Notes under the pieces: generated by a model
What the model saw: the letters and a program-made list of their open reading frames with translations, nothing else
What the model was told of the DNA's origin: nothing
The model's database searches: none
Made by a program: the position numbers and the translations under genes
In this document: positions 3,561 to 59,362 of the stretch, piece after piece
Layout: each line of letters starts with the position of its first letter
Position numbering within the stretch: position 1 is the stretch's first letter
NCBI RefSeq assembly: GCF_003073045.1
Contig: NC_037593.1
Location: 29,329,367 to 29,393,366 of the forward strand
Origin: Pomacea canaliculata
Taxonomy: Eukaryota
Direction: 5' to 3'
DNA: 64,000 nt

Positions 3561-3756
3561 CTTTTCGATAAAACTTGGAGTAATTTTTCTTCTTATCTCC
3601 ATCTTCATCTTTATCTGGAGGACGCACGGGCACTTTGAGTTCTGCCCCCTTCTTCAAGTTGTTGAAGCTGCAGGCGTCGGCGATCTCTTCACACAGAGAG
3701 TCGCTGACATTCAGCTCCAAGAAAACAGCCAGCTTCTTCACATTTTCAACAGGGTT
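3561..3756 (-). CDS. SULT-2 coding exon 4
   Basis: 'tctcatag|AACCCTGTTGAAAATGTG'. 'NPVENVKKLAVFLELNVSDSLCEEIADACSFNNLKKGAELKVPVRPPDKDEDGDKKKNYSKFYRK(G)'. GTCAGT donor. 196 nt. Confidence 0.8.
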
Positions 3757-4043
3757 CTATGAGATAACAACGAAAATATGTCAGCAATGAAATAAAGGGT
3801 TTCAGCAGCTTTAGACACGTGTAAAAATCCTGCTCTTGCCCAATGTCTTTCTTTGTGTGAACGAAATGACAAACGGATGTCGATGAACTTATATTACAAT
3901 ATTATTATTATACGTAGAAAAAGATATAAAAAAGATTTAAAACAAAACGAATATTGGCTCAGCAGACGTTAGGAATTTGTTTTAATTGTTGGATCATCAA
4001 CATCAGTCGTGTATGGGGGTGGGAGACTTGTACATGCACTAAC

Positions 4044-4147
4044 CTTTTTCATGTCTTCGAAAGACAATGACAGCATAGGCATATCTTTGTTCTCTACAGT
4101 GAATGTGAAAACTTGTTTAAGGTGCGTGAAGTAGTTGCCGTGGTTGC
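4044..4147 (-). CDS. SULT-2 coding exon 3
   Basis: 'tttccag|GC..' acceptor. '(C)NHGNYFTHLKQVFTFTVENKDMPMLSLSFEDMKK'. GTTAGT donor. 104 nt. Phase 1 to phase 0. Confidence 0.8.
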
Positions 4148-4566
4148 CTGGAAAGAGATAATATATAATCAATGAACAAACAACATCTGTCCTAGCCCTT
4201 TCTAGAAGTATCCGCGGCTTTAAGACCCAATGTGAAATATTTGACCAAGTTTGGAAACGCCTTTACATGGCGGTTATATCAAACACATGTGTTCTTTCAT
4301 GCGAGACGCACGTTAATAAAAATGTAAAAGTGTCATCTCGGAGCCTCAAGGAACAACTGTAAAAAAAAAAATGCTACAATAGGCAGCAACTACAGGTTCA
4401 TCTTGCTTACACTATAAGTGTAAACAAGTAAACAAAGAATGGAAAAGAGAGAGATTGAAAGGAGATATACACCAGTTACAAGAAATGTGTGGACTGAGCA
4501 CTCGCTAATATGACTGTTGCGGGAAGTAAACTATACCCATCAGGGAAAAGCAATATTATCACTAAC

Positions 4567-4893
4567 ATTCTTCTTGGAAGAACAGATCGCAGAAGTCCTT
4601 GAACTCCATGCCATGCACCACGTTGTCCTCGTTGCCACCGAGGTGGTGGTAGTAGGACACGCACGAGTCCTTGGGGTTGCGGTACACGAACACTACCTTC
4701 GTCCTTCGCTCCTTCATCTGTTGCCATGGCAGCATAAAGAAAGGCAAATGTGAGTTAAGGACTCGGGGGGAAGGCATGGAGGTCAGTTTGTCCAGCTCGG
4801 TCATCTCGACCATCAAATGCTCCTTGGGGCGAACATCATACTCAGCCTTCCCCTGCATCAGCATAGAGATCACCTCCCACAGCCAGTGAGTTC
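4567..4893 (-). CDS. SULT-2 coding exon 2
   Basis: Acceptor 'ctgcag|GAACTCACTGG'. '(G)THWLWEVISMLMQGKAEYDVRPKEHLMVEM..NSHLPFFMLPWQQMKERRTKVVFVYRNPKDSCVSYYHH..FFQEE(C)'. GTTAGT donor. 327 nt. Matches ORF 4562..4873. Confidence 0.85.
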
Positions 4894-5186
4894 CTGCAGT
4901 TGGAGTCGTCCCAACATTTTAATTCGTTGGACATCATTTCTTTGAACGGTGTATATATCATATATAATTCTTCTTAAAACACAGAAAAAAAGATATCTCC
5001 ATATTTTATATTTTCATGCTTTATTACTTGTTTAATGACTTTAAATTATAGTTTTGTTCGAGTTGCTATACAGAGCTACTTGAGGTAAAGCCACTTTACA
5101 GACCAGCTTTAGAATAAGCCACTAAAGAGACCTACTTTTGGATATACCAATATAGAAACCTGCTGTTAAAAGGTCTCTATACAAAC

Positions 5187-5433
5187 CTGCTTTAGGATAG
5201 GCTAACACAAAGATGTCATCATTTCGGAGAGGCAATCTACGAAGTGCGGTAATGTGAGCCTCCCAACTCTTTGAACCTCGACAGTGTGGGGGAAGAGCCC
5301 ACCCCTCAAGAATGTATGTGAAAGGTCGAGGGTCTTGACCTAGAAAGCGTAAGGTGCCAGCCGGGATGTCCTCCTTAGCATCAGCCTTGGTCTGGTCGCC
5401 TGAATCCTCCTCCTCCTTCTGAATGGAAGACAT
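5187..5433 (-). CDS. SULT-2 cytosolic sulfotransferase, coding exon 1 of 5
   Basis: ATG at 5433 (minus) 'MSSIQKEEEDSGDQ..FLGQDPRPFTYILEGWALPP..LRNDDIFVLAYPKA(G)'. GTTTGT donor. Phase 1. Confidence 0.75.
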
Positions 5434-7195
5434 GCTGGCACGTCTGCACGTGCTGCTGCACCAGACGAGTTTCATGTTAGTTCAACAGTTTCCGTGGGCG
5501 CAGAGACTTACAGATTTCATTCACATGCACTGTCTCTTTCTTCATCTCATTCACACTCACTTGAGTGTCTGTCTATCACTATCTCTCACTCACACACTCA
5601 TTCTCTCTCTTTTTTTTTTTTTGTCTGAAATGCTCGTGTAAAGGAACATTGTAACATGCATCTACAGTCTCTGAAGAAAATAAGTTAAATCAAGATATTT
5701 ATTTGAACTAGCCACTACATAATGACAGGTGAGATTCAAGGTGATGAAGACAGATACAAACAGACAGCAAGAATAAACTTTAGAAACAAAGAGAGTCGAG
5801 AGTCTTTGACCGGATAAGACAATATACACATCGCCGCATGTATCACACTCATTCAAAGCTTCCCTGTACTAAAATACTAAACTATCTCAACAGTCATTCA
5901 CTTTAATATACTTTGATGGGTTCCTCGAAAAAATATGCTTAGTTTTAGAATTAAGGCGAATAAGGAAGCAAAGGTGAATGTAAGGCTTACAAACCACACG
6001 CAAGCGAGCGGATACCAGTTGTGGTGTAATGCAACCACTTCACTATGGCGGACGCAGACAGAAGCAGACGTCAACCAAAGCCAATGGTGGAATAATCTTT
6101 CCTACGATGATTTCTGAAAAAGCTGCAAAGTCGTGTCGCGCGGTGCTGGTGGTCGTTAGACAGTCTGTTAGGCGGCAAATGGAAATGTGTAACAAACTGC
6201 CCGCCGCCCTCGACTACAGGCCGAGCCGCTGAGCTGCTTTTCCGCCTGTGTCAAGACTGTGTAGCGTGTTTCTGTCACGTGATTCTATGAATAGCGCACA
6301 CTCACGTCATGTGACTCGTTCTGACATCACGGCTTTTATCCTGAACTGAATGTCGTCTGCTTTTGTTTGGCGATGAAATGACAGATGTGTGGTGCACGAT
6401 GGGATGTGCTAAGAGGCTCGCAGCATGCTAGATCATCATAGGAGAGGCCGCCATCGATCCGCTGATCGCAGACTGTAGAGGTTGACCTTGATGACCTCGA
6501 TCCGTTACCGCTAGAGCTCATGTCGTCTGCTGCTGGGCTTCTTTGTATCTCGTGGCCATTTGTGGGTCTGTAAACTTAATTGTTGTATGTATGATGAATA
6601 TGTTTATATGCGATTCTGTCGGCAATGACAGGTCGTCTGTGTTCGCGATGTGTGTGTGTCGGCAATGAAAGGTCGTATGTGTTCCTGATGTTCGTGTATG
6701 TCACTGTATTTGTAGCGTGCGTGTGTCTGTGTATGTGTATGTGATGTTGTCTAAGATATGCGTTCCTGTATGTGTGACTGTGTCTGCGATATGCATAATT
6801 GTGGTGTTTGCGTGCATGTGCGTGAGTGTGTATGACGTTAGGGTTTCTTGTGTTTAATATTTAAAGCAAAAAGCAGCTTTATAAATAACAAAGCATAATA
6901 TAAACCAGAGCTATTTTTATTACATGTTGTTCATGCCTTTTTTTTCCGAAACCGCTCTACCTGTAGTCCCGTGGCATATTATTCCACATAATATAGTGCC
7001 TCGGCCTTATCGGAAAATTTTATGAGGGTTGAAATGTTATCTATAAATCTTCAGATTACTAGTCACTCTTGACATCTATTGTTCACACCAGTAATATTGT
7101 AGCCAGCTATTAGTCACCGCCATCTGGAATACAGTAGCCACTGATCGCCATTTTAACACTCGAAATATTGCAGTGATGAGTCTGGATTTAGTTCT

Positions 7196-7305
7196 TTATG
7201 AGTACTGGAGGATGTAAGGAAGGCCTTCCATCTGCTTCTCTATGAATGGGTCAACTCTTTCACTCATAGCTACTGTAAAGTAGTTTTTCCAGTCGCCAAT
7301 CTCTC
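7196..7305 (-). CDS. SULT-3 coding exon 5
   Basis: 'ttttcag|GAGAGATTGGCGACTGG'. '(G)[35 protein letters not shown]'. TAA stop at 7196-7198. Exon sum 993 nt = 331 codons. Confidence 0.85.
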
Positions 7306-7768
7306 CTGAAAATAAAAGAAGGAAAGACTGTATTACAGGCGATAGTTGTTAGGGGGACAGTTTCGTAGAGCATGTCTCAGGATCATTACTTCCAAACACG
7401 CAAACACACAAACACACTGAAGTAACACTAGAGGCAGACAAGCTCTTTTTCCAACCTTTTCTTCAGTGTCTGGTAATTTTGTGCATGTATGATGTTAAAA
7501 TTTTCACTCTTTTTCTAACTTTAAATAGTTCCGAAATGGCTCAGATTATCACCGACCATGTTTAATGATTTCTAATCAAGTGATAAGACTGTCAACGGTC
7601 GAAATTTTTTTCTCTCATTTCTCTTCTCTCTGTGTGTTTACGAGCGAGCACTTAGTCATTGACAAATTGTGTGTTTAATTGATGTGCTTCAAACGATTTT
7701 AAACATGTGACTCAAAGCAAAAACAAAACAAAAATAGAAATCCTTTCTACAATATCGCGCCCTCTGAC

Positions 7769-7982
7769 CTTTTCTGTAAGATCTTGAGTGTCTAGGTTTT
7801 CTTTGTTCGTCGCCATTGACTTCTCTGTTGGGATGATGATGAGGAGGATGGTCGCGGGTTTTGAACTCTGCATTCTTCTTCAGGTTCTCAAAGTTGCATG
7901 CCTCAGCAATGTCTTCACAAATCGCATCGGAAATGTCGATCTCCAGGAATTTTGCCAACTTCTTTACATTTTGTGCGGGGTT
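7769..7982 (-). CDS. SULT-3 coding exon 4 (contains His/Pro-rich variable linker)
   Basis: 'ctcag|AACCCCGCACAAAATG'. 'NPAQNVKKLAKFLEIDISDAICEDIAEACNFENLKKNAEFKTRDHPPHHHPNREVNGDEQRKPRHSRSYRK(G)'. GTCAGA donor. 214 nt. Verified by hand translation. Confidence 0.85.
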
Positions 7983-8229
7983 CTGAGAAGAATACAGGAA
8001 TGAGGAGGTCATGTATGTTATTAAAGAATGGATTTTAGCTAGGGAATATTTCAAAATATATTTAAGCGTAGTGTGATTTAATACGCTATTATTCAAAGGC
8101 ATTGCAGAAATTAAATCTACACTGACATTTCAGGTACATAATAAAAATAAAACATAAAAATAAAAAAGTAATAAGTAAAATTTCTTTAAATTGTGGATAA
8201 TATTATTTATGGTTAAACTGTGAACTAAC

Positions 8230-8333
8230 CTTTTTCATGTCTTCAAAAGACAGAGAAAGTATAGGTACATCTGGATTGTCTCGAGTGAATGCATACATTT
8301 GCTTCATGTACTCGAAGTAGTTGTCAAAGTGTA
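8230..8333 (-). CDS. SULT-3 coding exon 3
   Basis: 'gtttcag|TACACTTTGACAAC'. '(L)HFDNYFEYMKQMYAFTRDNPDVPILSLSFEDMKK'. GTTAGT donor. 104 nt. Confidence 0.8.
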
Positions 8334-8624
8334 CTGAAACAGGGAAATAACTCATGTGAGTAAAACTGCATCACTTAGAAAAATTACCTCCCTTAAATAG
8401 CGTAGTCACTGTGGCTAATCAGCTGTGAGCCTACAGAAAAATACACAGCAATACTTATAAAATGTAACTCGACAGGAGAAATATAATACAGCCATCAGCA
8501 AGAGAGAAAACATAGGAAGAATGTTATAAATGTAACTATAGTCGTGTGCCCTGTATTGTTTTAAAAGTTTAGTCACGTGAAACATGAATGAATCATACAG
8601 AAATATGCAGAAAACCATGCCCAC

Positions 8625-8951
8625 ACTTTCCGTAGAAGTACAGCTCCAGATAATCGCTGAAGACCATGTCATTGAACAAGTCGCCATCTCTTCCTTTCAT
8701 GTGATGAAAATATGACACACACGAATCTTTGGGATTTCGGTACACGTGTAGCACCTTTGACCTTTTCTCCTTTATCTGCTTCCATGGTAACATGGAGAAC
8801 GGTAGGTGTGAGTTGAACATCCTGGGGGAGGGGATTTGCTGTAGTTTGTCAAAGTCACTGAACTCCATCATCAACTGTTCCTTAGGACGACTGTCGTACT
8901 CGGCTGTGCCCCGCACCAGCATAGACAGCACCTCCCACAGCCAGTGAGTGC
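8625..8951 (-). CDS. SULT-3 coding exon 2
   Basis: 'ttcccag|GCACTCACTGG'. '(G)THWLWEVLSMLVRGTAEYDSRPKEQLMMEF..NSHLPFSMLPWKQIKEKRSKVLHVYRNPKDSCVSYFHHMKGRDGDLFNDMVFSDYLELYFYGK(C)'. Donor GTGGGC (weak). 327 nt. Confidence 0.8.
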
Positions 8952-9185
8952 CTGGGAAGTTAATAAAATCGTTATTTTATAATCTTTCCCTTTTTCATAG
9001 TGGCATTCATCTAGAATGGTGGAATTAGTAGCTTTACCCCCGCATTAGAAAAATAATTGCTCCCTAGTACTCATTTAAAGGATGATCAAAAACGAGAAAT
9101 AGAAGGGAGCCTATACGGTTTGCTGGGAAGGAGGGAAGAAAGTAGTAGGTCAAGCAGAACGACGACACGACAAGGACTCACGCAC

Positions 9186-9423
9186 CTGCCTTAGGATAGG
9201 CGCAGAGGAAAATGTCGTCGTCACGGAGCTGCAGAGAACGAAGGTTAGCGATGTGAGTCTCCCAACTCGTCAATCGTGGACGTTTCGGGGGGAGTGCCCA
9301 TCCTTCGAGGGTATAATTCAAAGGCCGAGGATCGTCTCCGAGAAAGTTCAAACTTCCAGTCTCGCCAATGAAAGCCTCAGATCCTGTGTCGTCTGCTAGC
9401 TTCTGCGGATTTTCTGACGCCAT
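9186..9423 (-). CDS. SULT-3 cytosolic sulfotransferase, coding exon 1 of 5
   Basis: ATG at 9423 (minus) 'MASENPQKLADDTGSEAFIGETGSLNFLGDDPRPLNYTLEGWALPPKRPRLTSWETHIANLRSLQLRDDDIFLCAYPKA(G)'. GTGCGT donor. Matches ORF 9178..9423. Confidence 0.8.
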
Positions 9424-12223: not shown

Positions 12224-12333
12224 TTAGGAGTATTGTAAAATGTAGGGAAGGCCCTCCATCTTTTCCTCTATGAGGGGATCCACTCTTTCGTTCATTTCTG
12301 CTGTGAAGTAGTTCTTCCAATCCCCGATTTCTC
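12224..12333 (-). CDS. SULT-4 coding exon 5
   Basis: 'ttctag|GAGAAATCGGGGATTGG'. '(G)[35 protein letters not shown]'. TAA stop at 12224-12226. Exon sum 996 nt. Confidence 0.85.
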
Positions 12334-12707: not shown

Positions 12708-12939
12708 CTTTTCTGTAAGCTTCAAAGAAAGGTTTCTTCTTGTCATCGTGTTTTAAATCTCCATGGGAGGTAGGTGTTGAAGGAGGAGTTGGAGGATGAG
12801 GAAAAGGAGGATGTTTCTTAAGTTCCGCATTTATCTTCAAGTTCTGGAAACTACAAGCTTCGGCGATGTCTTCACAAATTTCATCGGAGAGGTCTGTTTC
12901 CAGGAATTTGGCCAACTTTTTCACGTTTTGTACAGGATT
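12708..12939 (-). CDS. SULT-4 coding exon 4 (longest variant of the Pro-rich linker)
   Basis: 'ttttcag|AATCCTGTACAAAACGTG'. 'NPVQNVKKLAKFLETDLSDEICEDIAEACSFQNLKINAELKKHPPFPHPPTPPSTPTSHGDLKHDDKKKPFFEAYRK(G)'. GTGAGA donor. 232 nt. Confidence 0.85.
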
Positions 12940-13900: not shown

Positions 13901-14212
13901 TTTTTCCGTAGAAAAACAATTCAAAATAATCACTGAAGTCCATGTTTCTAAATCCCTTCATGTGATGATAATACGACACACACGAGTCCTTGGGGTTTCG
14001 GTACACGTGTAGCACCTTTGACTTCTTCTCCTTCATTTGTTTCCATGGTAACATAAAAAATGGCAGGTGTGAGTTGAAGATCCTAGGGGAAGGCGTTTGT
14101 TCCAGCTTCTCAAGATCGCTCATCTCCATCATCAACTGTTCTTTAGGGCGGTCATCGTACTGAGCTTTGCCCTGGAGCAGCATGGACAGCACCTCCCACA
14201 GCCAGTGAGTTC
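13901..14212 (-). CDS. SULT-4 coding exon 2 (312 nt, 5 codons shorter than most paralogs)
   Basis: 'gccatag|GAACTCACTGG'. '(G)THWLWEVLSMLLQGKAQYDDRPKEQLMMEM..NSHLPFFMLPWKQMKEKKSKVLHVYRNPKDSCVSYYHHMKGFRNMDFSDYFELFFYGK'. GTGAGA donor. Confidence 0.8.
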
Positions 14213-16610: not shown

Positions 16611-18056
16611 CGCGAGGGGTTAGAATGTAGCACAGTTCGTGTTCACCTCCGCGGCCAACTGTTTCCCTGGCTTGTGTAACCGCCAACGGTGTTGACCGAG
16701 AACCCCCTGACCCCGCCTTCCTGCCTCTCGATGACGTCATGAGAGTAGAGGTCAGGGGGCAGGAAGTAGAACAGAGCAGACAGAAAGTACATGTAAGTTG
16801 TTTCTCCGTCACTTACCAGCTAATGCTGTCAATTATGCAGCATTCAAACAATTACCATGCTGCATTTCGACACAGATTATTTGTACTACAGTAGAAAAGG
16901 GATAAAATATGTACTTTTGTCGAATAGTGTTTAAACAAAGTAGCAAGATAGATATTCATTTAAAACTGTCCAATCAAGTCGAATGAAATAAAAAAAACTA
17001 TTTCTAACCTGGAATTTTCTGAATGCGTGTATTTATAAATTCTTCTCATTGTAAACAGTTGAGATGTTGAAGGAGGGGTGGGGAACATCAGGTGATATTC
17101 TCATATTCTCATCTTTTCTGTCTTCTAGCAAACTCATTGAGTGAAACAAACAATCTGAATCGGGAATATTCGCTGAGAGGTGGCGGGCTCACCCACAAGG
17201 GAGATAACAATGTTAATTAACTGTTATCATTTCAAAATGGCGGCGGGCTTCTCAAGAACCTCTTACAGATTGTATGCCTAGGACAATAGAGTGCTTTTTC
17301 AGATATGTTCCTGCCACAGAGCTAGAGTTTCAATGAACTATTAATTATCGTCCTGAGAGGATTATTTCCGTCAGGTCTCCCGCCTGAAGTATACACCACT
17401 AGTTAAAAACATGTGATCATTAGCTAACGGGTACAGACTGGGTTTTCAACTTATCTGTTTGCATAAAGTGTGAAAAAGTTCTCAGTGGGCAGAGACTGGA
17501 TGAAGAAATTACCTGTTAACGGTTTGAAATCAGTTTGTCAAACGGTTGTTTCTCTGGCAGTTGTGCCTCGGTATGACTGCAGCACTGTTTAAACTTTGTC
17601 TCCTGTGTTTATAATTGTTTATTTGTAGATATTGTCATTAATATTGAGCCAAACTGCAGCTAAGATTTGAGAGCTTAAATATTTCAGAAGAAATATAGTT
17701 ACATCACAGTCATTATGTTCGTGGTAAATGTGTGACTGGAATTACGATCAGGGTAGTGTATTCTGGTATGTTCTTAGACTGCTTTGATCAAGTACAAACT
17801 ACATGTACCCGTGTCACCAGGCTAAAATTGAACAAACGGTAACGACTTCAGTGCACCAGCTCTGGTTTCTGCTTCAGGAGTACATGAGTTCTTTAAGACT
17901 GAAATGAAATCATGGTAAGACTGGGATTTACTCTCCTCCTAATAGCTTTCATGTGGGGTGAATAGAACACAGTACTAGCAACCACCCGACAAACCTTTAG
18001 CTCATTAGTTCCGATTTTACACACACGACATCGAACGATTCTTTCAGGAAATCAAA

Positions 18057-18294
18057 ATGGCGGCGGAAGAGCCACAGAAGCAGGTGGACGACACTTTGTC
18101 TGGAACCACGCCTGGACAGGCTGGAACTTTGAACTTTGTAGAAGGTGAAACTCAGCCTGTGAGCTACATTCTGGAAGGATGGGCTCTCCCTCCAAAGATG
18201 CCCCGCGTGACGAGCTGGGAAACTCACATCGCAGGACTTCGCTCCCTTCAGCTCCGTGAAGATGACATCTTCCTCTGTGCTTACCCCAAGGCAG
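18057..18294 (+). CDS. SULT-5 cytosolic sulfotransferase, coding exon 1 of 5
   Basis: ATG at 18057 'MAAEEPQKQVDDTLSGTTPGQAGTLNFVEGETQPVSYILEGWALPPKMPRVTSWETHIAGLRSLQLREDDIFLCAYPKA(G)'. GTTGGT donor at 18295. Confidence 0.85.
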
Positions 18295-18489
18295 GTTGGT
18301 GCACCCTTTGTTTGAGGCAAAGTTGTATTGCATTATGGGTACGTTTCCTGTTCTTAGTGTATTCTTCTCTTTGGCTTTTCTTAAAGGTCACTTTACTTTT
18401 CAAAATTATGATAAGATCATGAGAAAGTTTACTGGTTGACCAGTGCTTGAAGGCAAATGTTGATAAATATTATGGCTAAAATTTATGTC

Positions 18490-19913: not shown

Positions 19914-20130
19914 AATCCTGTAGACAATGTGAAAAAGCTGGCCAAGTTCCTGGGCATTGACCTCCCAGACACAGTGTATGAAAACATCGCCGAGGCTTGC
20001 AGCTTCCAGAACTTGAAGCGGAATGCAGAATTCAAAACACGTGATCCTCCTCCTCCTCTTCCTCATCCTCCACCTAAAGATGTCATCGGCGATGAAAAGG
20101 ACCATTTGTTCTTAAGAGCTTATAGGAAAG
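19914..20130 (+). CDS. SULT-5 coding exon 4 (Pro-rich linker variant)
   Basis: 'ttttag|AATCCTGTAGACAATGTG'. 'NPVDNVKKLAKFLGIDLPDTVYENIAEACSFQNLKRNAEFKTRDPPPPLPHPPPKDVIGDEKDHLFLRAYRK(G)'. GTGAGA donor. 217 nt. Confidence 0.85.
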
Positions 20131-21723: not shown

Positions 21724-21777
21724 CTGGAGCATCAGTAAATGATCTTCAGAATTATTTCAAATGTTCGCATACACACA

Positions 21778-21802
21778 CACTCGTTCTCTCTCTCTCTCTC
21801 GC

Positions 21803-21834
<32 letters not shown>

Positions 21835-21929: not shown

Positions 21930-22125
21930 CTTTTCGGTAAAATTCAATGCGAGTTTGTTTTTTCTCCTTATTTTCATTTTCTGGATAATCGCACCAGACT
22001 TTTTTAATTTCAGCTCCTTTCTTCAATTTCTTGAAGCTGCAGGCGTCAGCGATGTCTTCACAGAGTTTGTCGTCCACGTCCACTTCCAAAAATGTGGCCA
22101 AACGTTTGATGTTTTCAGTCGGACT
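21930..22125 (-). CDS. SULT-6 coding exon 4
   Basis: 'tctttcag|AGTCCGACTGAAAACATC'. 'SPTENIKRLATFLEVDVDDKLCEDIADACSFKKLKKGAEIKKVWCDYPENENKEKKQTRIEFYRK(G)'. GTATGT donor. 196 nt. Confidence 0.8.
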
Positions 22126-40318: not shown

Positions 40319-40514
40319 AATCCCTTAGAAAATGTGAAACGTTTGGCCAAGTTTTTGGAACTGGATGTCGACGAACAGCTTTGTAAAGACATCACCGATG
40401 CCTGCAGCTTCAATAATTTGAAGAAAGGAGCTGCGCTGAAAAAAATCCCGCTTTCAATTTTAGAAATGGAAAATGCGGAGAAAAAACCTCCCCCTCTTGA
40501 ATTTTACCGAAAAG
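40319..40514 (+). CDS. SULT-10 coding exon 4
   Basis: 'tttatttcag|AATCCCTTAGAAAATGTG'. 'NPLENVKRLAKFLELDVDEQLCKDITDACSFNNLKKGAALKKIPLSILEMENAEKKPPPLEFYRK(G)'. GTCAGT donor. 196 nt. Confidence 0.8.
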
Positions 40515-44300: not shown

Positions 44301-47300
44301 CACTCACTCACTCACTCACTCACTCACTCACTCACTCACTCACTCACTCACTCACTCACTCACTCACTCACTCACTCACTCACTCACTCACTCACTCACT
44401 CACTCACTCACTCACTCACTCACTCACTCACTCACTCACTCACTCACTCACTCACTCACTCACTCACTCACTCACTCACTCACTCACTCACTCACTCACT
44501 CACTCACTCACTCACTCACTCACTCACTCACTCACTCACTCACTCACTCACTCACTCACTCACTCACTCACTCACTCACTCACTCACTCACTCACTCACT
44601 CACTCACTCACTCACTCACTCACTCACTCACTCACTCACTCACTCACTCACTCACTCACTCACTCACTCACTCACTCACTCACTCACTCACTCACTCACT
44701 CACTCACTCACTCACTCACTCACTCACTCACTCACTCACTCACTCACTCACTCACTCACTCACTCACTCACTCACTCACTCACTCACTCACTCACTCACT
44801 CACTCACTCACTCACTCACTCACTCACTCACTCACTCACTCACTCACTCACTCACTCACTCACTCACTCACTCACTCACTCACTCACTCACTCACTCACT
44901 CACTCACTCACTCACTCACTCACTCACTCACTCACTCACTCACTCACTCACTCACTCACTCACTCACTCACTCACTCACTCACTCACTCACTCACTCACT
45001 CACTCACTCACTCACTCACTCACTCACTCACTCACTCACTCACTCACTCACTCACTCACTCACTCACTCACTCACTCACTCACTCACTCACTCACTCACT
45101 CACTCACTCACTCACTCACTCACTCACTCACTCACTCACTCACTCACTCACTCACTCACTCACTCACTCACTCACTCACTCACTCACTCACTCACTCACT
45201 CACTCACTCACTCACTCACTCACTCACTCACTCACTCACTCACTCACTCACTCACTCACTCACTCACTCACTCACTCACTCACTCACTCACTCACTCACT
45301 CACTCACTCACTCACTCACTCACTCACTCACTCACTCACTCACTCACTCACTCACTCACTCACTCACTCACTCACTCACTCACTCACTCACTCACTCACT
45401 CACTCACTCACTCACTCACTCACTCACTCACTCACTCACTCACTCACTCACTCACTCACTCACTCACTCACTCACTCACTCACTCACTCACTCACTCACT
45501 CACTCACTCACTCACTCACTCACTCACTCACTCACTCACTCACTCACTCACTCACTCACTCACTCACTCACTCACTCACTCACTCACTCACTCACTCACT
45601 CACTCACTCACTCACTCACTCACTCACTCACTCACTCACTCACTCACTCACTCACTCACTCACTCACTCACTCACTCACTCACTCACTCACTCACTCACT
45701 CACTCACTCACTCACTCACTCACTCACTCACTCACTCACTCACTCACTCACTCACTCACTCACTCACTCACTCACTCACTCACTCACTCACTCACTCACT
45801 CACTCACTCACTCACTCACTCACTCACTCACTCACTCACTCACTCACTCACTCACTCACTCACTCACTCACTCACTCACTCACTCACTCACTCACTCACT
45901 CACTCACTCACTCACTCACTCACTCACTCACTCACTCACTCACTCACTCACTCACTCACTCACTCACTCACTCACTCACTCACTCACTCACTCACTCACT
46001 CACTCACTCACTCACTCACTCACTCACTCACTCACTCACTCACTCACTCACTCACTCACTCACTCACTCACTCACTCACTCACTCACTCACTCACTCACT
46101 CACTCACTCACTCACTCACTCACTCACTCACTCACTCACTCACTCACTCACTCACTCACTCACTCACTCACTCACTCACTCACTCACTCACTCACTCACT
46201 CACTCACTCACTCACTCACTCACTCACTCACTCACTCACTCACTCACTCACTCACTCACTCACTCACTCACTCACTCACTCACTCACTCACTCACTCACT
46301 CACTCACTCACTCACTCACTCACTCACTCACTCACTCACTCACTCACTCACTCACTCACTCACTCACTCACTCACTCACTCACTCACTCACTCACTCACT
46401 CACTCACTCACTCACTCACTCACTCACTCACTCACTCACTCACTCACTCACTCACTCACTCACTCACTCACTCACTCACTCACTCACTCACTCACTCACT
46501 CACTCACTCACTCACTCACTCACTCACTCACTCACTCACTCACTCACTCACTCACTCACTCACTCACTCACTCACTCACTCACTCACTCACTCACTCACT
46601 CACTCACTCACTCACTCACTCACTCACTCACTCACTCACTCACTCACTCACTCACTCACTCACTCACTCACTCACTCACTCACTCACTCACTCACTCACT
46701 CACTCACTCACTCACTCACTCACTCACTCACTCACTCACTCACTCACTCACTCACTCACTCACTCACTCACTCACTCACTCACTCACTCACTCACTCACT
46801 CACTCACTCACTCACTCACTCACTCACTCACTCACTCACTCACTCACTCACTCACTCACTCACTCACTCACTCACTCACTCACTCACTCACTCACTCACT
46901 CACTCACTCACTCACTCACTCACTCACTCACTCACTCACTCACTCACTCACTCACTCACTCACTCACTCACTCACTCACTCACTCACTCACTCACTCACT
47001 CACTCACTCACTCACTCACTCACTCACTCACTCACTCACTCACTCACTCACTCACTCACTCACTCACTCACTCACTCACTCACTCACTCACTCACTCACT
47101 CACTCACTCACTCACTCACTCACTCACTCACTCACTCACTCACTCACTCACTCACTCACTCACTCACTCACTCACTCACTCACTCACTCACTCACTCACT
47201 CACTCACTCACTCACTCACTCACTCACTCACTCACTCACTCACTCACTCACTCACTCACTCACTCACTCACTCACTCACTCACTCACTCACTCACTCACT

Positions 47301-49342
47301 CACTCACTCACTCACTCACTCACTCACTCACTCACTCACTCACTCACTCACTCACTCACTCACTCACTCACTCACTCACTCACTCACTCACTCACTCACT
47401 CACTCACTCACTCACTCACTCACTCACTCACTCACTCACTCACTCACTCACTCACTCACTCACTCACTCACTCACTCACTCACTCACTCACTCACTCACT
47501 CACTCACTCACTCACTCACTCACTCACTCACTCACTCACTCACTCACTCACTCACTCACTCACTCACTCACTCACTCACTCACTCACTCACTCACTCACT
47601 CACTCACTCACTCACTCACTCACTCACTCACTCACTCACTCACTCACTCACTCACTCACTCACTCACTCACTCACTCACTCACTCACTCACTCACTCACT
47701 CACTCACTCACTCACTCACTCACTCACTCACTCACTCACTCACTCACTCACTCACTCACTCACTCACTCACTCACTCACTCACTCACTCACTCACTCACT
47801 CACTCACTCACTCACTCACTCACTCACTCACTCACTCACTCACTCACTCACTCACTCACTCACTCACTCACTCACTCACTCACTCACTCACTCACTCACT
47901 CACTCACTCACTCACTCACTCACTCACTCACTCACTCACTCACTCACTCACTCACTCACTCACTCACTCACTCACTCACTCACTCACTCACTCACTCACT
48001 CACTCACTCACTCACTCACTCACTCACTCACTCACTCACTCACTCACTCACTCACTCACTCACTCACTCACTCACTCACTCACTCACTCACTCACTCACT
48101 CACTCACTCACTCACTCACTCACTCACTCACTCACTCACTCACTCACTCACTCACTCACTCACTCACTCACTCACTCACTCACTCACTCACTCACTCACT
48201 CACTCACTCACTCACTCACTCACTCACTCACTCACTCACTCACTCACTCACTCACTCACTCACTCACTCACTCACTCACTCACTCACTCACTCACTCACT
48301 CACTCACTCACTCACTCACTCACTCACTCACTCACTCACTCACTCACTCACTCACTCACTCACTCACTCACTCACTCACTCACTCACTCACTCACTCACT
48401 CACTCACTCACTCACTCACTCACTCACTCACTCACTCACTCACTCACTCACTCACTCACTCACTCACTCACTCACTCACTCACTCACTCACTCACTCACT
48501 CACTCACTCACTCACTCACTCACTCACTCACTCACTCACTCACTCACTCACTCACTCACTCACTCACTCACTCACTCACTCACTCACTCACTCACTCACT
48601 CACTCACTCACTCACTCACTCACTCACTCACTCACTCACTCACTCACTCACTCACTCACTCACTCACTCACTCACTCACTCACTCACTCACTCACTCACT
48701 CACTCACTCACTCACTCACTCACTCACTCACTCACTCACTCACTCACTCACTCACTCACTCACTCACTCACTCACTCACTCACTCACTCACTCACTCACT
48801 CACTCACTCACTCACTCACTCACTCACTCACTCACTCACTCACTCACTCACTCACTCACTCACTCACTCACTCACTCACTCACTCACTCACTCACTCACT
48901 CACTCACTCACTCACTCACTCACTCACTCACTCACTCACTCACTCACTCACTCACTCACTCACTCACTCACTCACTCACTCACTCACTCACTCACTCACT
49001 CACTCACTCACTCACTCACTCACTCACTCACTCACTCACTCACTCACTCACTCACTCACTCACTCACTCACTCACTCACTCACTCACTCACTCACTCACT
49101 CACTCACTCACTCACTCACTCACTCACTCACTCACTCACTCACTCACTCACTCACTCACTCACTCACTCACTCACTCACTCACTCACTCACTCACTCACT
49201 CACTCACTCACTCACTCACTCACTCACTCACTCACTCACTCACTCACTCACTCACTCACTCACTCACTCACTCACTCACTCACTCACTCACTCACTCACT
49301 CACTCACTCACTCACTCACTCACTCACTCACTCACTCACTCA
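41341..49342. repeat. Giant uninterrupted tetranucleotide microsatellite (CACT)n, ~8.0 kb, ~2000 units (AGTG on the opposite strand)
   Basis: Every 60-nt line from 41341 to 49320 reads cactcactca... with no variant base. The tract ends 'cactcactca|gacttttttt' at 49342 and begins after 'gtctagtatct' at 41340. Confidence 0.97.
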
Positions 49343-50300: not shown

Positions 50301-51293
50301 GTAGTTTACTGGCATGGACTCCTGTAGCCTACTGGCCGAAGTGGCTCATCATGTCTAGAGTACGCCCCGTGGAAAGCGGAATCAAAGCTTTCCCTCCTCC
50401 ACATTTACATCTGTAAGCTTTGTGTGTGTGTGTGGGTGCGTGCGTGCGTGGATGAGAGAGAGAGAGGGTGTGTGTGTTCTAGAGAGTGAGCGTTCTCTCT
50501 CTCTTTCAAGTCTCACTGGAGGGGTGCACGCATGTGTGTGTAAGAAAGAGCAAGATCACATTAAAAGAAATCCGTGATGACGCTCAATAAATAAATAACT
50601 AAATCATTATTCACCTTTCGATTTGTAACCGCATAAAATTCTAGAATGTGGAAAGGGATGGACTGCGGGTCAGCATTCATATGAAGACTGTTTTTCTACT
50701 CTCACCATCATGACAAGTGATCACTTGTTAGGATTTTCGAAACAAGTGAGATCACATCAGAGTTTGAAAAATATCAGTCTCATCAAAATAACCGACCTGA
50801 GGTCACTTGTAGGCGGCCATCTGGATGCACATCAAACACATGAACAGATGGCTGGCTTTATGCTTACAAACACTACCTGATGGAACATTACATGTGGAAA
50901 CACAGTGGCTAGTCAAGCAGCTAGTCCATCATGCCTTTGGCTTGAGTTTGTACTGAGCAACGCAAGCACTCGTAACCAAGCTAGCTATGTGCTAGCATAA
51001 TGCTTGGCATGGCCAGGATGAACAGACAAACAAACAAGCTAGCTATGTTCTAGCATAATGCTAGGCATGGCCAGGGTGAACAGACAAACAAACAAGCTAG
51101 CTATGTGCTAGCATAATGATTGGCATGGCCAGGGTGAACAGATAAACATGAATAAATGAGCGAAGTAGTTTACTGGCATGGACTCCTGTAGCCTACTGGC
51201 CGAAGTGGCTCATCATGTCTAGAGTACGTCCCGTGGAAAGCGGAATCAAAGCTTTCCCTCCGCCACATTTACATCTGTAAGCTTTAAATAGCT
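50301..51293. repeat. Two ~128-bp direct repeats (50301-50428 and 51166-51293) flanking a ~60-bp x3 tandem minisatellite (50940-51140) and (TG)n/(GA)n tracts
   Basis: 'agtagtttactggcatggactcctgtagcctactggccgaagtggctcatcatgtctagagtacg(c/t)cccgtggaaagcggaatcaaagctttccctcc(t/g)ccacatttacatctgtaagcttt' occurs twice. Between them, 'caagctagctatgtgctagcataatgcttggcatggccagggtgaacagacaaacaaa' repeats three times. Confidence 0.8.
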
Positions 51294-52350: not shown

Positions 52351-53040
52351 TGCGAGAGAGAAAGAAGGATAATCGTGAAGGAGTGAATAAAACTTACATT
52401 TGAGAAACACCTCCAAGAAAAGACAAACGTATAGTTCAGAATAAACGCAAAAATAAAAACGGTATCTTGAGAGAATGTCGATGCTAGATATCAGATATCA
52501 GATATAAATTATAGCAAATTGTATTGAAACAGATTTTCAATGGTGTGAAGAGACACGCTGGTCATTAGTGTCAAAGTGTCAAATGATACAGTAAATTATT
52601 TAACACCTACATACAGCAAGGTACACGACAGTAAACCCAGACATTATTGTGACTGTCTGTGGTAAAGTTTGTTTTAAATATACATTATTTTTTCATAAAA
52701 TAAGTAAACTATAAGCTAAACTACATCGTCCTCGTCATGTGTCATTTTAAAATTTGGACTGACATGTAGATGTTAAATTGTTACATATTTTTAAAAAGTT
52801 GATTTTGTCAGAGCTTTCTAGCATCAATGCTGTTAAATTACAATAGATAAGTTGATGTGTTTGGCAAAATATGTCGGACTTCTCTATTATATTTTATGTG
52901 AGATATGTTTGCCACATTCCACAGCTGGTCCATGCACAAAAAAACAAATTCCAAATTTCCGAACCCACAGTCCGAACACTTCCACTGTCACACACATCTT
53001 ATGTTCTTCCGACATTCAATTCCCCCTCCCCCCTAAAAAA

Positions 53041-53270
53041 AATCTCCAGTTGAAAATGACACCAAGTCTCCACTTGAATATAACACCAAGTTTCCACTTC
53101 TAGGTAACACAAATATGTCCACTTGAATATAACACCAAGTCTCCACTTGAATATAACACAAAGTTTCCACTTCTAGGTAACACAAATATGTCCACTTGAA
53201 TATAACACAAAGTTTCCACTTCTAGGTAACACAAATATGTCCACTTGAAAGTAACACAAAGTTTTCACTG
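53041..53270. repeat. Minisatellite, ~22-24 bp unit x ~9-10
   Basis: Alternating units 'ccacttgaatataacaccaagtct' / 'ccacttctaggtaacacaaatatgt' repeated in tandem. Confidence 0.8.
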
Positions 53271-55880: not shown

Positions 55881-57699
55881 GTATCTTCGAAGATGCTTTC
55901 AAAACGTTTGTGTATATCTGACCTTTTAGATAACGAGGGTTCATTCTTCGTGCAACACCATATATATACTAGAAACTTTACAGAGCATATTACCCACAGC
56001 ACAGAGCTAATGACAGTTCATCGTCCCTACTAGGGTCGTCGCTCTCCACATGTTCAGCCAACTAGAATACAATAACACAAATACATACACACACTCGCGC
56101 GCGAAGGCCGTACACACAGGTGGTTTCCGGGGTCACAGGGGAGGTAATCCGCGGTGACGTCACGGGGCTACTAGCACGTGCTGCTGAGAACTGAACCAAA
56201 CCACGTCGATTCCGGAATGGTCCTGGGAGGCGATTCCAGGAGGCTCCAATTCTTCAGCCCATACACTTAAAACCTGTAACTCGAGGTTACACTATACTAA
56301 TTCTCCAATTCTCACATCTTGTTCTCTTATGTTAATGACTCGAAACCTGCATTATATCCATTACAATTTCACAAAAAAATGGCATTAATACGATTCGAAA
56401 GAATTTAGACAGACGAAAATAGACGCGTATCCACGTTATGCAGATTCTGAAATCCGTTGTTCAATGCAATGCAAGTGGGTAAAAAAAAGTCTACTTTTTT
56501 ACTCTTTTTTTTTTTTTTCGAGTTGGCCTCATCTTTCCCAGTATGAGCTGCTTATTCTCCGCTGATGAAGTTTTCGTTTTGTGCCGCTCAGACGCTTGTT
56601 TAAAGGTCGGACTGAACTGAGAGCATTTGAAGCAGGGAGGTAACTGCGCGCTCACGACGTACAAGAGATTACGGCCCTTTCACTAAAAAAAATTACTTCA
56701 CAAACTCTAGGATTTTAAAATCTGGGGCTGCCTGAACGCTAATCATCTGGAATTCGATAGTATTAGGAGAAATTTGTACTGTGCTAAATTACGCTAAGAT
56801 TAATCTTTTTTAAAATGATAATGTGCTAGCCCATTCACCTGAGATTCTATATTCTATATATTTGGCATTGTCGCTTGACTTTCCTAGAGACTGCTAAAGG
56901 TTTGGGCTGCGTGTGTGCTCTGGAATGTCAGTCCGGGGGCTGGGGCATTAACAAATGGCTAAAAACTATCAGGTATTGTCTGGGTGGCTTCGTCTCCCTA
57001 ATTTGTGACTAAATAGTACAGTTAGCAACATCACTAATTAACATTAATGAAACGTCACCAGCTATCTCTTAAAATTATTTTATTTATCATGGTATTTTAG
57101 TAAAACAGAAAACAAGACACTTTAATGAAAAGTTCGCAAAATAATTAAGTCTGAAGACGTACTGTGAATATAGTTTTTTTTTTAATCCATTAACTTTTAT
57201 ATGTCCACGCGGCATGATGGCCCAGCCCTGTCCACGCAGCGAATCGGCATGAGAAGGCAGGGCGGGGAGTCGGACTAGCTTCACCACTGGGCAAGGATGG
57301 CTGATGGCTGATGGTAAGAGGAGGGTTGGCTTAACGAGAACTGCCGAGGTCGCTGACGTCACGCTCCCGAAGGCTCCCAAAGTTTTTCCCTTCACTGAGA
57401 CCTTTATTTAAAAAATTCAGCTCCCGGGGATGAGTAATTTTCCGCAATTCTTTCCGGCCAAAACCTACTGGTGAACTGTCTTCACTAAGCACTTTCTGTC
57501 TCAGTTAACCCTTTCCTATCTAAGGTTTACATACATTCAACATATACGTTAGTCCCTGAGCCACCAAAGGGTTAAACACTCCGTAAAACACGGGAGGCAA
57601 GACTGGTCCCTGACAATGAACTTCTATGTATTTTATTACTGGCGCTACACTTTAGTCTCTATGGACTGAAACACACAGAAGTAGTCAGACTGCATCACG

Positions 57700-58760
57700 T
57701 GTGGAGGATCAACCAGACCATCTTATCTGACGTCCCATCTGTCATCGACAGCCACTGCCAGCAGATGCAGGATCATCGATTAAAAACTTGTCCATTCTTC
57801 GAGTGATCAATACAGAGCTTTTAGCAAGATCAACTTTGGATGGACTTTAACAGCTTTCTTATCTGCTAGTTGATAACGGCTCGCAGTTTGTATGTCATCT
57901 CGCCTCTGCCTGTCTGTCCATTGCTAACAGAAGAATTACAGCTATCAGGTTGTGTCCAGTATGTCAGAGTTTTCCCTTCACATGTCGTCTGCTCCATGTT
58001 CTACATTTTGGCCTGTAGACAAGTATGTTTTCATCACCTCCGCTCGAAACCGATACATGCCTCGTTTCTAAGTAAGGCTGTGAAATAGTTGCTGACATGG
58101 TGTAAGACTCCAATTAACTAACCTACAATTAGGCATTGCCACCTGTGGGTCTCTCTCTCTCTTGTGTGTGCATACTTAGTGTTTTGGTAAACATCTAGGA
58201 GAAAATTGTAGTTAAGAGAATAAAACCGAGGCCTGACACAAAGGTCCCATCTGTCATTGCGAACAGATATCAGATTATCTATTAAAATCTTTCTCATTTC
58301 AGTGTGATCAGTGCTGAACTTGAAGTAAGATCCCTATTGGATCGATTCTTGCATCGTTCTTAGCTGCTAGCTGATAAAGGTTTTTTCTGTGTTCGCGTAC
58401 GCCATACACTGTTAAGGCGTCTGGAAAAGGAGTGGTCACGTGACATTACTTTTTTTGTTTTCTCTCGTAATTTGTTGCTGGAGCCGGCCGGTTGTTTGTA
58501 AATTCTTTTTAGTACAAATCTTGATTGATCTTTCTCTCAATAACCTTCGTAGCCTCTTTCATCATTACAAGAAATTTTTTTTTTAATTTTTAAAAAAACT
58601 AACAACCGGTTAATTATGCAATCATTCTATACTAAGAAACGTCAGAGCTTCCCTAAACGATGGTAAAGGACACCGGCTCCTGGACTATCCAGTAAAGAGA
58701 GACAAAATGTTAATCATATATAAATTTCTCAGAATTGTCACTAAGTAAAATTGTTCAAGA
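57700..58760. repeat. Internally tandem-duplicated intergenic block (sub-units ~57700-58100 and ~58250-58760). It is a paralogous copy of the SULT-11 5' flank and intron-1 region (60560-62040), including a promoter-like segment with GTCACGTGAC at 58435-58444
   Basis: 'ggagtggtcacgtgacattactttttttgttttctctcgtaatttgttgctggagccggccggttgtttg' (58431-) vs 'ggagtggtcatgtgacagcattttttttctcttttctcccttcttgcgctggccgcttgtttg' (61691-). 'ggacaccggctcctggactatccagtaaagagagacaaaatgttaatcatatataaatttctcagaattgtcactaagta' (58671-) vs 'ggacgccggctcatgaaccctccagtatagggagacacaatgtgaatcatagacaaatttctcagagttgttgctaagta' (61941-). 'tttcttatctgctagttgataacggct' motifs recur at 57861, 58361 and 60661. Confidence 0.7.
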
Positions 58761-58850
58761 GTCACCAGGCTGAGCTGAGTCGTTGCTATGCCAACTTGTT
58801 CAACGAGTAAAGGTGTGTCCGCTTAGCAAATGTTGAGATAACTGTGAGTT

Positions 58851-58960
58851 TCACGAATACTGTATGACATAGGGCAGGTCTTTCAACTCTTTCTCCACGA
58901 CTGCGTCCATCTGCTCGCTCATGGCCACAGTAAGATAGTTCTTCCAGTCGCCCACCTCTC
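58851..58960 (-). CDS. SULT-11 coding exon 5
   Basis: 'gttccag|GAGAGGTGGGCGACTGG'. '(G)[35 protein letters not shown]'. TGA stop at 58851-58853. Exon sum ~921 nt. Confidence 0.8.
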
Positions 58961-59175
58961 CTGGAACACAAACATACAAAGATTCATTACATCAGGTAGA
59001 TGATAAATCAAACAGGACTTTTTTCTTCATTTTGGATGATATGTTGAAAAATTTATGTCTCGCCATATTGTAACACACTGAGGAAGGTTATTTTTAAAAT
59101 ACCGACAGTCTTCAAAATTTGTCCTTTTTACCATAGTGTGATAGCATTGACAAGTAGCACAATATCCATAATTAC

Positions 59176-59362
59176 CTTTTCTGTACATATTCATCTTTCT
59201 ATGTGGAATATTTTTGCTTTTGGTAAATTCTGGAATGGCTTTCTTCTCATCCTGTTTCTTCATGTTCTGGAAGCTGCAGGCCTCTGCGATTTCTTCACAC
59301 AGTTGCTGTGATGCTGGAACTTCCAAAAACTCAGCAATCTGCTTTACTTTATCTGAGGGACT
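59176..59362 (-). CDS. SULT-11 coding exon 4
   Basis: 'tttttcag|AGTCCCTCAGATAAAGTAAAGCAG'. 'SPSDKVKQIAEFLEVPASQQLCEEIAEACSFQNMKKQDEKKAIPEFTKSKNIPHRKMNMYRK(G)'. GTAATT donor. 187 nt. Confidence 0.8.

Follow-up and report, generated by a model that had tools for sequence, protein, structure and literature searches.

The 64,000-nucleotide stretch of the apple snail Pomacea canaliculata genome analyzed here (positions 29,329,367 to 29,393,366 of NC_037593.1; hereafter the window) is a tandem array of 11 paralogous cytosolic sulfotransferase (SULT) genes with five coding exons each. Ten of these genes (G1 to G10) are complete, G0 is partial, and at least one further member of the array lies outside the window. 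Genes G0 to G3, G5, G6, and G10 are on the minus strand, and G4 and G7 to G9 are on the plus strand. A six-frame motif scan of the window recovered ten copies of the pattern 'ACSF..(N/K)(L/M)K...YRKG' together with matching 'VSYYHH' exons on both strands, and an all-against-all comparison of open frames returned five conserved blocks per gene copy. When exon boundaries were set at the nucleotide level for G1 to G10, every junction proved to be a GT-AG intron, and all reading frames were intact.

Our main subject is the segment of exon 4 that lies between the conserved '...CSFQNLK' helix and 'YRKG', which we call the linker. A sequence-only reading of the window had described this linker as hypervariable, had placed it at the substrate-gating loop 3 of SULT enzymes, and had given exon-4 lengths of 178 to 232 nt that are always 1 mod 3. 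The gene models match this length range and phase exactly, and the four linker peptides quoted at that time (SULT-2, SULT-3, SULT-4, and SULT-5, equivalent to G1, G2, G3, and G4) occur verbatim in the sequence. The exon-4 copies, whose outermost ends are at positions 3561 and 59362, are listed below along with the partial gene.

361..1797, minus strand: G0 (SULT-1), partial; exon 1 at 1797-1557, exon 2 at 687-361, exons 3 to 5 past the window start
3561..3756, minus strand: G1 (SULT-2) exon 4, 196 nt; linker 3571-3648, 26 aa, GAELKVPVRPPDKDEDGDKKKNYSKF; equals XP_025090218
7769..7982, minus strand: G2 (SULT-3) exon 4, 214 nt; linker 7779-7874, 32 aa, NAEFKTRDHPPHHHPNREVNGDEQRKPRHSRS
12708..12939, minus strand: G3 (SULT-4) exon 4, 232 nt, the longest; linker 12718-12831, 38 aa, NAELKKHPPFPHPPTPPSTPTSHGDLKHDDKKKPFFEA
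19914..20130, plus strand: G4 (SULT-5) exon 4, 217 nt; linker 20022-20120, 33 aa, NAEFKTRDPPPPLPHPPPKDVIGDEKDHLFLRA; kept by all three RefSeq isoforms
21930..22125, minus strand: G5 exon 4, 196 nt; linker 21940-22017, 26 aa, K/E/N-rich; equals XP_025090222
25688..25874, minus strand: G6 exon 4, 187 nt; linker 25698-25766, 23 aa
32283..32463, plus strand: G7 exon 4, 181 nt; linker 32391-32453, 21 aa; equals XP_025090231
34935..35112, plus strand: G8 exon 4, 178 nt, the shortest; linker 35043-35102, 20 aa, QAEKKEVTKGETRRVTDADM
40319..40514, plus strand: G9 exon 4, 196 nt; linker 40427-40504, 26 aa
59176..59362, minus strand: G10 exon 4, 187 nt; linker 59186-59254, 23 aa; equals XP_025090233

Six different exon-4 lengths are represented, the frame is kept in 10 of 10 copies, and none contains a stop codon. 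The full protein of G0 is XP_025092658, whose linker matches that of G1 at 22 of 26 residues. Exon 3 is 104 nt in all genes and exon 5 is 110 nt in all but G6 (113 nt). A second, smaller variable region at the end of exon 2, following 'VSYYHH', had also been noted from the sequence, and the same exon lengths appear in the gene models: 327 nt in eight genes, 312 nt in G3, 333 nt in G8, and 318 nt in G10. The corresponding segments ('loop 2') are as follows; the G3 segment falls 5 aa short of the length found in most paralogs.

4604-4642, minus strand: G1 loop-2 segment
8662-8700, minus strand: G2 loop-2 segment
13938-13961, minus strand: G3 loop-2 segment, within the shortest exon 2 (13901..14212, 312 nt)
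19189-19227, plus strand: G4 loop-2 segment
22721-22759, minus strand: G5 loop-2 segment
26547-26585, minus strand: G6 loop-2 segment
31528-31566, plus strand: G7 loop-2 segment
34204-34248, plus strand: G8 loop-2 segment
39240-39278, plus strand: G9 loop-2 segment
59952-59972, minus strand: G10 loop-2 segment

The genes are already annotated in RefSeq. Our G3 model agrees at 100% of residues, end to end, with XP_025090214.1 of P. canaliculata ('sulfotransferase family cytosolic 1B member 1-like'), and the remaining models match RefSeq or GenBank proteins encoded nearby on the same 34.7-Mb sequence. Every annotated RefSeq isoform keeps the linker, with isoforms varying at the N-terminus only, and the variable segment is therefore not spliced out in any of them. 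A literature search on the SULTs of Pomacea or of molluscs turned up no paper on these genes, and one on Pro-rich loop-3 insertions found nothing; the loop variant is undocumented but unsurprising.

Membership of the encoded proteins in the cytosolic SULT family is indicated by several comparisons. The Pfam profile PF00685 (Sulfotransfer_1; cut-off of 22 bits) gives E = 8.1e-54 for G3, where the match spans profile positions 1-254 of 255, and E = 8.2e-56 for G8. Searches of Protein Data Bank (PDB) chains with phmmer returned mouse SULT3A1 and human SULT1B1, 1C2, and 1A1 with E values of ~1e-39 to 1e-33. AlphaFold2 (AF2) models of G3 and G8, with mean predicted local distance difference test (pLDDT) scores of 84.6 and 90.4, were matched by Foldseek to SULT1A1, 1B1, 1C2, 1E1, and 2A1 with a probability of 1.00 and target-normalised template modeling (TM) scores of 0.78-0.87.

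The functional motifs of the family are likewise present. All 11 genes encode the 5′-phosphosulfate-binding (PSB) loop as YPK[AT]GTHW, which is split by intron 1 between YPKAG and THW (e.g. at 14540/14212 in G3). Relative to the vertebrate TYPKSGTTW, this snail version keeps the Lys, Gly, Thr, and Trp residues but replaces Ser with Ala or Thr and the second Thr with His; among 69 molluscan homologs, K78, G80, and W83 do not vary, and the conservation of T81 and H82 is 90% or more. The catalytic-His motif N[ST]HLP and the sequence YRNPKD..VS[YFM][YF] occur in all paralogs and align to 'KTHLP' and 'ARNAKDVSVSYYH' of SULT1B1. Residues H128, R151, and S159 are invariant among the molluscan homologs (the reference residues being catalytic His108 of SULT1A1, plus Arg130 and Ser138). 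The 3′-phosphate-binding motif YRKGE[IVA]GDW[KR]NY[FL]T, which is split by intron 4, is found in all 10 complete genes. Taken from sequence comparison, the window genes are cytosolic SULT family members of a lineage-specific kind, whose PAPS (3′-phosphoadenosine 5′-phosphosulfate)-dependent sulfonation activity is predicted.

Membership in vertebrate SULT1 was not supported: identity to the SULT1A1, 1B1, and 1C2 structures is only 26-31%. The threshold for family-level SULT nomenclature is at least 45% identity. The RefSeq names 'SULT1B1-like' and '1A3-like' are best-hit labels rather than statements of orthology, with the paralogs belonging to lineage-specific gastropod clades.

The dimerisation motif KxxxTVxxxE (KTVE), as defined previously (PMC5550701), is exact in 8 of the 10 complete window genes. 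The two deviant sites are KNYFTAEMNE in G3 (exon 5, 12224-12333) and RNYFTETLNE in G4 (exon 5, 20348-20457). The latter has K to R and V to E changes, and the V269E mutant of human SULT1E1, which carries the same V to E change as G4, favours the monomer (PMC3801471). We observe that G3 and G4 are two of the three genes with long linker inserts, and that loop 3 abuts the dimer interface.

Loop 3 of vertebrate SULTs closes over the acceptor and PAPS pockets upon nucleotide binding. In human SULT1B1 this element has been defined as amino acids 235-263, which overlie the active site and are flexible without nucleotide (PMC4492763). The acceptor site lies beneath its N-terminal half and the PAPS site beneath its C-terminal half, where Arg258 contacts the 3′-phosphate; a hinge formed by an Asp250-Met146 bridge fastens the loop to the pocket floor, and the loop adjoins the dimerisation domain (PMC4492763). 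By phmmer alignment with PDB 2z5f, the snail linker corresponds to chain residues 237-259, which are native residues 235-257 because the chain numbering of this entry is native +2. The proposed location at loop 3 is therefore supported by both the residue alignment and the published definition of the loop, and alignment with human SULT did not place the variable segment elsewhere. The exon-2 segment after 'VSYYHH' aligns to 'HFDLM146NNLQPFPG' of SULT1B1, which includes the hinge partner and forms pocket wall. Judging from these alignments, the two indel-bearing segments are structural neighbours around the acceptor pocket.

The extra residues appear to be unevenly distributed within the loop. 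Compared with SULT1B1, G3 has ~14 extra residues ahead of the hinge-equivalent acidic residue and ~3 beyond it, and the ~9 residues preceding YRKG are gap-free in all paralogs. We infer from these two observations that the insert resides mostly in the N-terminal, acceptor-side half of loop 3. In the AF2 model of G3, residues 259-299 are coil with block-mean pLDDT values of 64, 53, 47, and 67 and values below 50 at residues 276-291, and the pLDDT of the G8 loop dips to only about 50 at residues 251-260. These low model scores fit a flexible cap but say nothing on whether the insert covers the pocket.

We compared 12 paralogs, comprising the window genes, the full-length G0 protein (XP_025092658), and one neighbour (P0011), with the following results.

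N-terminus (exon 1): mean pairwise identity 0.32; 9.7 gap columns per pair
Segment after VSYYHH (exon 2): mean pairwise identity 0.22; 1.7 gap columns per pair
Exon-4 linker: mean pairwise identity 0.25; 6.5 gap columns per pair
Three core blocks: mean pairwise identity 0.58-0.71; 0-0.2 gap columns per pair

Internal indels among paralogs are limited to the exon-4 linker and the exon-2 segment, and the N-terminus, which had escaped the sequence-only reading, is also variable. After duplication, the paralogs diverged almost completely in the cap and the adjoining exon-2 segment, and the core remained under strong purifying selection. Nei-Gojobori ratios of nonsynonymous to synonymous substitution rates (dN/dS) among paralogs are 0.03-0.24 for the core, 0.25-0.54 for the N-terminus, and 0.29-1.36 for loop 3, with loop-3 dN being 4-5 times core dN. 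Only the G3-G4 pair exceeds 1 in the loop (1.36, from 30 poorly alignable codons), and the other pairs yield 0.29-0.80. Note that the loop-3 values are based on 18-31 codons per pair, that dS is often saturated (>1 or undefined), and that the loop alignments are unreliable. Therefore, pairwise paralog dN/dS was dropped as a test of selection. The proposal of diversifying selection on this segment is not borne out by these noisy ratios, which are compatible with relaxed constraint. Loop 3 evidently diverged fast on the basis of these alignments, and paralog dN/dS does not separate positive selection from relaxed constraint.

A closely related taxon provided a comparison between orthologs. A search with the G3 exon-4 open reading frame (ORF) led to near-identical ORFs in Logan assemblies of SRR34434959 and SRR34434926. 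The genomic contigs holding them, taken together with those of other cluster members, span G2 completely and G3 and G8 for the most part, and of G4 and G9 they include exon 1. These contigs are collinear with the window and 92-94% identical to it, and the non-coding substitution divergence is 5.3% (13,014 sites). Logan members of the clusters containing the RefSeq proteins are single-exon ORFs on genomic contigs and not transcripts. A search of a 5.8-billion-protein collection for the G4 ortholog, with the G4 exon-4 ORF as query, returned only the G3 ortholog. A contig from a further accession (L007, SRR34434949) aligns to 17186-18324 and then to 18829-18933, and lacks ~500 bp of G4 intron 1 (18325-18828).

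Exon-4 lengths are the same in the relative for G2 (214 nt), G3 (232 nt), and G8 (178 nt). Across the 90 linker codons of these three genes, we found six synonymous differences, no nonsynonymous differences, and no indels: three synonymous changes in G2 (contigs L003/L004), three in G3 (L001/L002), and none in G8 (L006). Given the measured ratio of transitions to transversions, 24% of random changes would be synonymous and ~76% nonsynonymous, such that six of six synonymous changes would occur under neutrality with P = 2e-4. The ratio of nonsynonymous to synonymous differences per site (pN/pS) between the window and the relative is 0.55 for the N-terminal region and 0.09 for the core, and the linker differs from the N-terminal region (Fisher p = 0.017). 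The tracts of G2 and G3 showed no present-day length instability at this level of divergence. Hence the description of the linker as hypervariable and subject to rapid indel change holds between paralogs only. In this small sample the linkers are conserved at present, those with Pro/His tracts (G2 and G3) among them, and are not currently hypervariable. Because the linkers differ between paralogs but not between orthologs, the divergence can be placed soon after duplication and was followed by purifying selection; conservation between orthologs also indicates that each linker is not junk.

Between the two taxa, amino-acid changes cluster at a single place, loop 2 of G2 (8662-8700), where KGRDGDLFND in the window corresponds to KGHENDLFHD in the relative (L003, 3521-3847). 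This change comprises 7 nucleotide differences in 19 nt and four replacements, whereas the other ~100 residues of this exon have no replacement and four synonymous changes. No gene-conversion donor for the G2 changes was found in the window. The cluster may represent one or two multinucleotide events, in which case the nominal p = 0.005 relative to the core overstates the evidence.

The linker had also been characterized from sequence as low in complexity and rich in Pro, His, Lys, and Asp. We find that the Pro/His portion of this description applies to G2, G3, and G4 only, whose linkers hold 9, 13, and 10 Pro plus His residues, respectively, whereas those of the other genes are K/E/D-rich. 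These three genes form a clade with 100% bootstrap support (neighbour-joining, 256 gap-free columns), which is nested within a clade A made up of G0 to G6 and G9 (88%); clade B consists of G7, G8, G10, and G11 (99%). The loops of outgroup gastropods and bivalves have 19-25 residues. Those of clade B have 20-23 and those of the remaining clade A genes 23-26, as against 32-38 for G2 to G4. Given this tree and these lengths, the Pro/His insert is derived and of single origin.

The nucleotide sequences of these tracts have the character of a decayed triplet repeat. The purest repeat is that of G4 (CCT CCT CCT CCT CTT CCT CAT CCT CCA CCT), and a direct-repeat family lies at 20044-20075 in the linker of this gene. 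The G2 tract reads CAT CCT CCT CAT CAT CAT CCC, and that of G3 reads CAT CCT CCT TTT CCT CAT CCT CCA and continues with an imperfect duplication of a 12-nt unit (ACT CCT CCT TCA, encoding TPPS, and ACA CCT ACC TCC, encoding TPTS). A plus-strand repeat search returned only the one short family in G4 and none in G3; the codon alignment is more informative. Codon use is homogeneous: CCT encodes 18 of 21 Pro residues within the G2 to G4 linkers (8 of 9 in G3) versus 21 of 55 elsewhere in the same genes (Fisher p = 2.4e-4), and CAT encodes 9 of 11 His residues within the linkers versus 7 of 26 outside. The residues accompanying Pro (His, Leu, Thr, and Ser) mostly have codons one step from CCN. Thus the features of a trinucleotide repeat are present in all three genes, namely tandem triplets, homogeneous codons, and in-frame lengths of 32, 38, and 33 aa. 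The tracts are interrupted, with CCT x4 as the longest pure run, and the aligned position in G1 is CGT CCT CCA, which is a plausible seed. From the sequence, the Pro/His tract is best described as a degenerate CCT/CAT triplet repeat, with slippage as the likely source of the in-frame indels.

A plausible history of the insert can be outlined from these observations. In the gene ancestral to G2, G3, and G4, a short Pro-Pro seed of the kind still present in G1 would have grown into a CCT/CAT repeat. Replication slippage would be the simplest mechanism, as it adds or removes whole codons, and this would explain in part why the reading frame is always kept. Continued slippage together with point decay (CCT to CAT, CTT, ACT, and TCN) would then have produced three distinct Pro/His/Thr/Ser-rich inserts, which amount to 11-17 residues added relative to human SULT1B1. 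Different cap lengths and chemistries would be expected to give different acceptor gating or selectivity, as loop 3 does in vertebrate SULTs, and such a gating effect is a reasonable expectation by analogy with vertebrate SULT biology.

We therefore consider it reasonably probable that the array carries paralog-specific loop-3 caps that were fixed after duplication and are now under purifying selection, that the Pro/His tract was born from a repeat, and that the various lengths and chemistries tune acceptor gating. Conservation between orthologs argues that each lid sequence matters. Several points weigh against this interpretation. The ortholog test covers three genes and six substitutions, and it does not statistically separate loop 3 from the core (p = 0.31). 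Residue alignment within the loop is unreliable, and assignment of the insert to the acceptor half draws on proximity to the N-terminal anchor and one HMMER alignment. The G3 linker has pLDDT values of 47-67 (residues 261-300) and might just as well be a disordered excursion at the surface that plays no part in gating. Slippage is deduced from repeat structure, with no length polymorphism observed, and the effect on substrate range is purely inferential.

A more specific proposal, which we regard as rather doubtful, is that the Pro/His insert itself is a functional, paralog-specific extension of the cap, born from triplet repeats and then frozen by selection, that alters gating of acceptors by the lid. 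Under this proposal, the insert might, for example, act as a rigid polyproline spacer keeping the cap open to bulky substrates, or its His residues might make gating sensitive to pH or metal; the G4 insert might be coupled to the loss of a KTVE dimer contact that is normally in communication with loop 3.

The absence of any function for the added residues is somewhat easier to entertain, although we still judge it unlikely. In this case, an exposed loop 3 would tolerate any sequence, the tract would be a neutral low-complexity bulge left by slippage, and the pattern would reflect relaxed constraint only. Paralog dN/dS values in the loop are mostly 0.3-0.8, which is near-neutral and noisy, the AF2 models show coil with low pLDDT, the homogeneous codons point to a mutational and not a selective origin, and low-complexity inserts recur at the same site in unrelated molluscan SULTs (Babylonia P0009 and P0062). 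However, a neutral bulge is difficult to reconcile with six synonymous changes and no replacement or indel in 90 linker codons, particularly as the N-terminal region, which is also predicted to be disordered, does gain replacements. The ortholog data also bear on a reading in line with the original proposal, in which diversifying selection for new substrate ranges is still acting on a hypermutable coding microsatellite. The presence of three lengths within the G2 to G4 clade, the G3-G4 ratio above 1, and a triplet-repeat structure that could slip are in accord with it. Nevertheless, that single ratio comes from poorly alignable codons, the linkers of G2, G3, and G8 have the same length and protein sequence in the relative, the interrupted repeats are stabilised, and clustered replacements between the taxa occur in loop 2 of G2 and not in loop 3. 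Ongoing diversification is consequently improbable in our view.

Ortholog conservation implies some function, and this need not be acceptor gating. The insert might instead be a Pro-rich docking site for partners of the SH3/WW type, a His-rich metal or pH element, or a modulator of dimerisation. For the last of these, the non-consensus KTVE sites of G3 and G4, the V to E change that G4 shares with the monomer-favouring SULT1E1 mutant (PMC3801471; PMC5550701), and the adjacency of loop 3 to the dimerisation domain (PMC4492763) are suggestive. However, G2 has the insert yet retains a canonical KTVE motif, and insert and motif change are thus not strictly coupled; a new role of this kind seems very improbable. 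Finally, the possibility that the variable segment is a cryptic intron or an annotation artefact in exon 4 is effectively refuted. The CCT-rich tract bears only a superficial likeness to a polypyrimidine tract, whereas all 10 copies keep phase and lack stop codons at six lengths, stop codons occur in both other frames of the G3 and G4 linkers and in one of the two for G2, the RefSeq models and all isoforms keep the segment, and the linker differences between orthologs are exclusively synonymous. We also considered the CCT tract as a cryptic polypyrimidine tract with an acceptor site and rejected it: use of the following AG in G4 would cause a frameshift, and no isoform uses this AG.

The array resembles known systems in most respects. 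Human SULT1B1 and SULT1A1 (PDB 2z5f, 3ckl, 1ls6, and 4gra) share the fold (TM about 0.8) at ~30% sequence identity, as well as the anchors on either side of the loop, which are a helix ending in '..SFxxMK' and the 3′-phosphate motif RKGxxGDWKNxFT. Loop 3 is flexible without nucleotide in human SULT (PMC4492763) and poorly ordered in both snail models. It measures ~21 residues in the human protein (2z5f alignment), compared with the 20-23, 23-26, and 32-38 residues of clade B, the other clade A members, and G2 to G4, respectively. Differences are also found in the PSB loop (PK[AT]GTHW versus PKSGTTW) and in the region equivalent to loop 1, which is ~10 residues shorter in the snail. The best PDB match is the mouse amine sulfotransferase SULT3A1 (PDB 7v1o; E = 3e-39), which belongs to the same family and has the same motif set but lacks a loop-3 insert; no shared substrate class is implied.

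Other inserts occur at the same position. In the 97 homologs whose anchors could be recognised, most loop-3 lengths fall at 16-29 residues (median 24), and values of 42-58 are anchor mis-assignments. A Babylonia areolata 'sulfotransferase 1C2-like' protein (P0009) has a 62-aa insert rich in D/N/T/G/E/S, and the metagenome or Logan SULTs P0062 and P0024 have inserts of 33 aa each, that of P0062 being (GPPGS)n-like. These inserts differ in composition from the Pomacea tract and are of independent origin, and the Babylonia protein groups weakly with clade B and not with G2 to G4. The loop-3 site is a recurrent insertion hot spot in the SULT family, of which the Pomacea Pro/His tract is one instance. 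Human SULT2B1b offers a partial parallel as a canonical cytosolic SULT with a Pro/Ser-rich low-complexity extension, which in that protein is at the C-terminus; the Pomacea tract lies within the active-site cap.

Some features of the annotation and of the intergenic DNA are recorded here as separate observations. RefSeq isoform XP_025090230 (P0129) joins exon 1 of G7 to exons 2-5 of G8 (30567-30765 joined to 33953-35451) and skips the remainder of G7; it represents read-through or a chimeric transcript model, or else a first exon shared by tandem paralogs. The GenBank submitter model C0Q70_08306 for G9 (40319-40546) runs through the exon-4 donor and stops in the intron to give 302 aa. In the G1/G2 region (5187-9423), C0Q70_08302 (1053 aa, 'EF-hand domain-containing') and C0Q70_08303 (530 aa) are apparently fused models of neighbouring genes. 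Between G9 and G10, beginning ~500 bp downstream of the G9 stop codon, lies a perfect (CTCA) x 2001 array (41339-49342; 8004 bp, 100% identity, plus strand without G). Because an error-free microsatellite of such length is rare, this array may have arisen as an artefact of assembly or polishing, or may be a gap that was collapsed or filled. Intergenic minisatellites are present at 37257-37351, 50977-51148, and 53038-53269, with units of 31-32, 58, and 24/49/73 nt, and short dispersed repeats are common to 36.9-37.4 kb, 41.0-41.2 kb, and 55.6-56.0 kb. The ORFs of the 49.3-58.8 kb spacer yielded nothing interpretable.

In its broad outline, the array is an ordinary example of two known principles, which are the divergence of substrate loops among SULT paralogs and the expansion of SULT genes in molluscs. 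Sult expansions with 83 genes in Chlamys farreri and 26 in oyster have been tied to the transformation of xenobiotics and toxins (PMC5700196). The Pomacea array is another molluscan expansion, from a caenogastropod, whereas that report concerns copy number and expression in bivalves, and the passages of it available to us describe no low-complexity inserts in loop 3. If the cap inserts tune acceptor range, the array would exemplify the diversification of a detoxification family in an invasive, pollution-tolerant snail, and its history would be one of duplication, then slippage of a triplet repeat in the loop that sieves substrates, with each new lid afterwards maintained by purifying selection. 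If the Pro/His insert is indeed a functional extension, the G2 to G4 genes would constitute a natural experiment in which the SULT molecular sieve was re-engineered by low-complexity insertion. The array as a whole supplies loop-3 variants made by nature, 20 to 38 residues long and set in a near-constant scaffold, which would lend themselves to a test of the cap-gating model for human SULTs.

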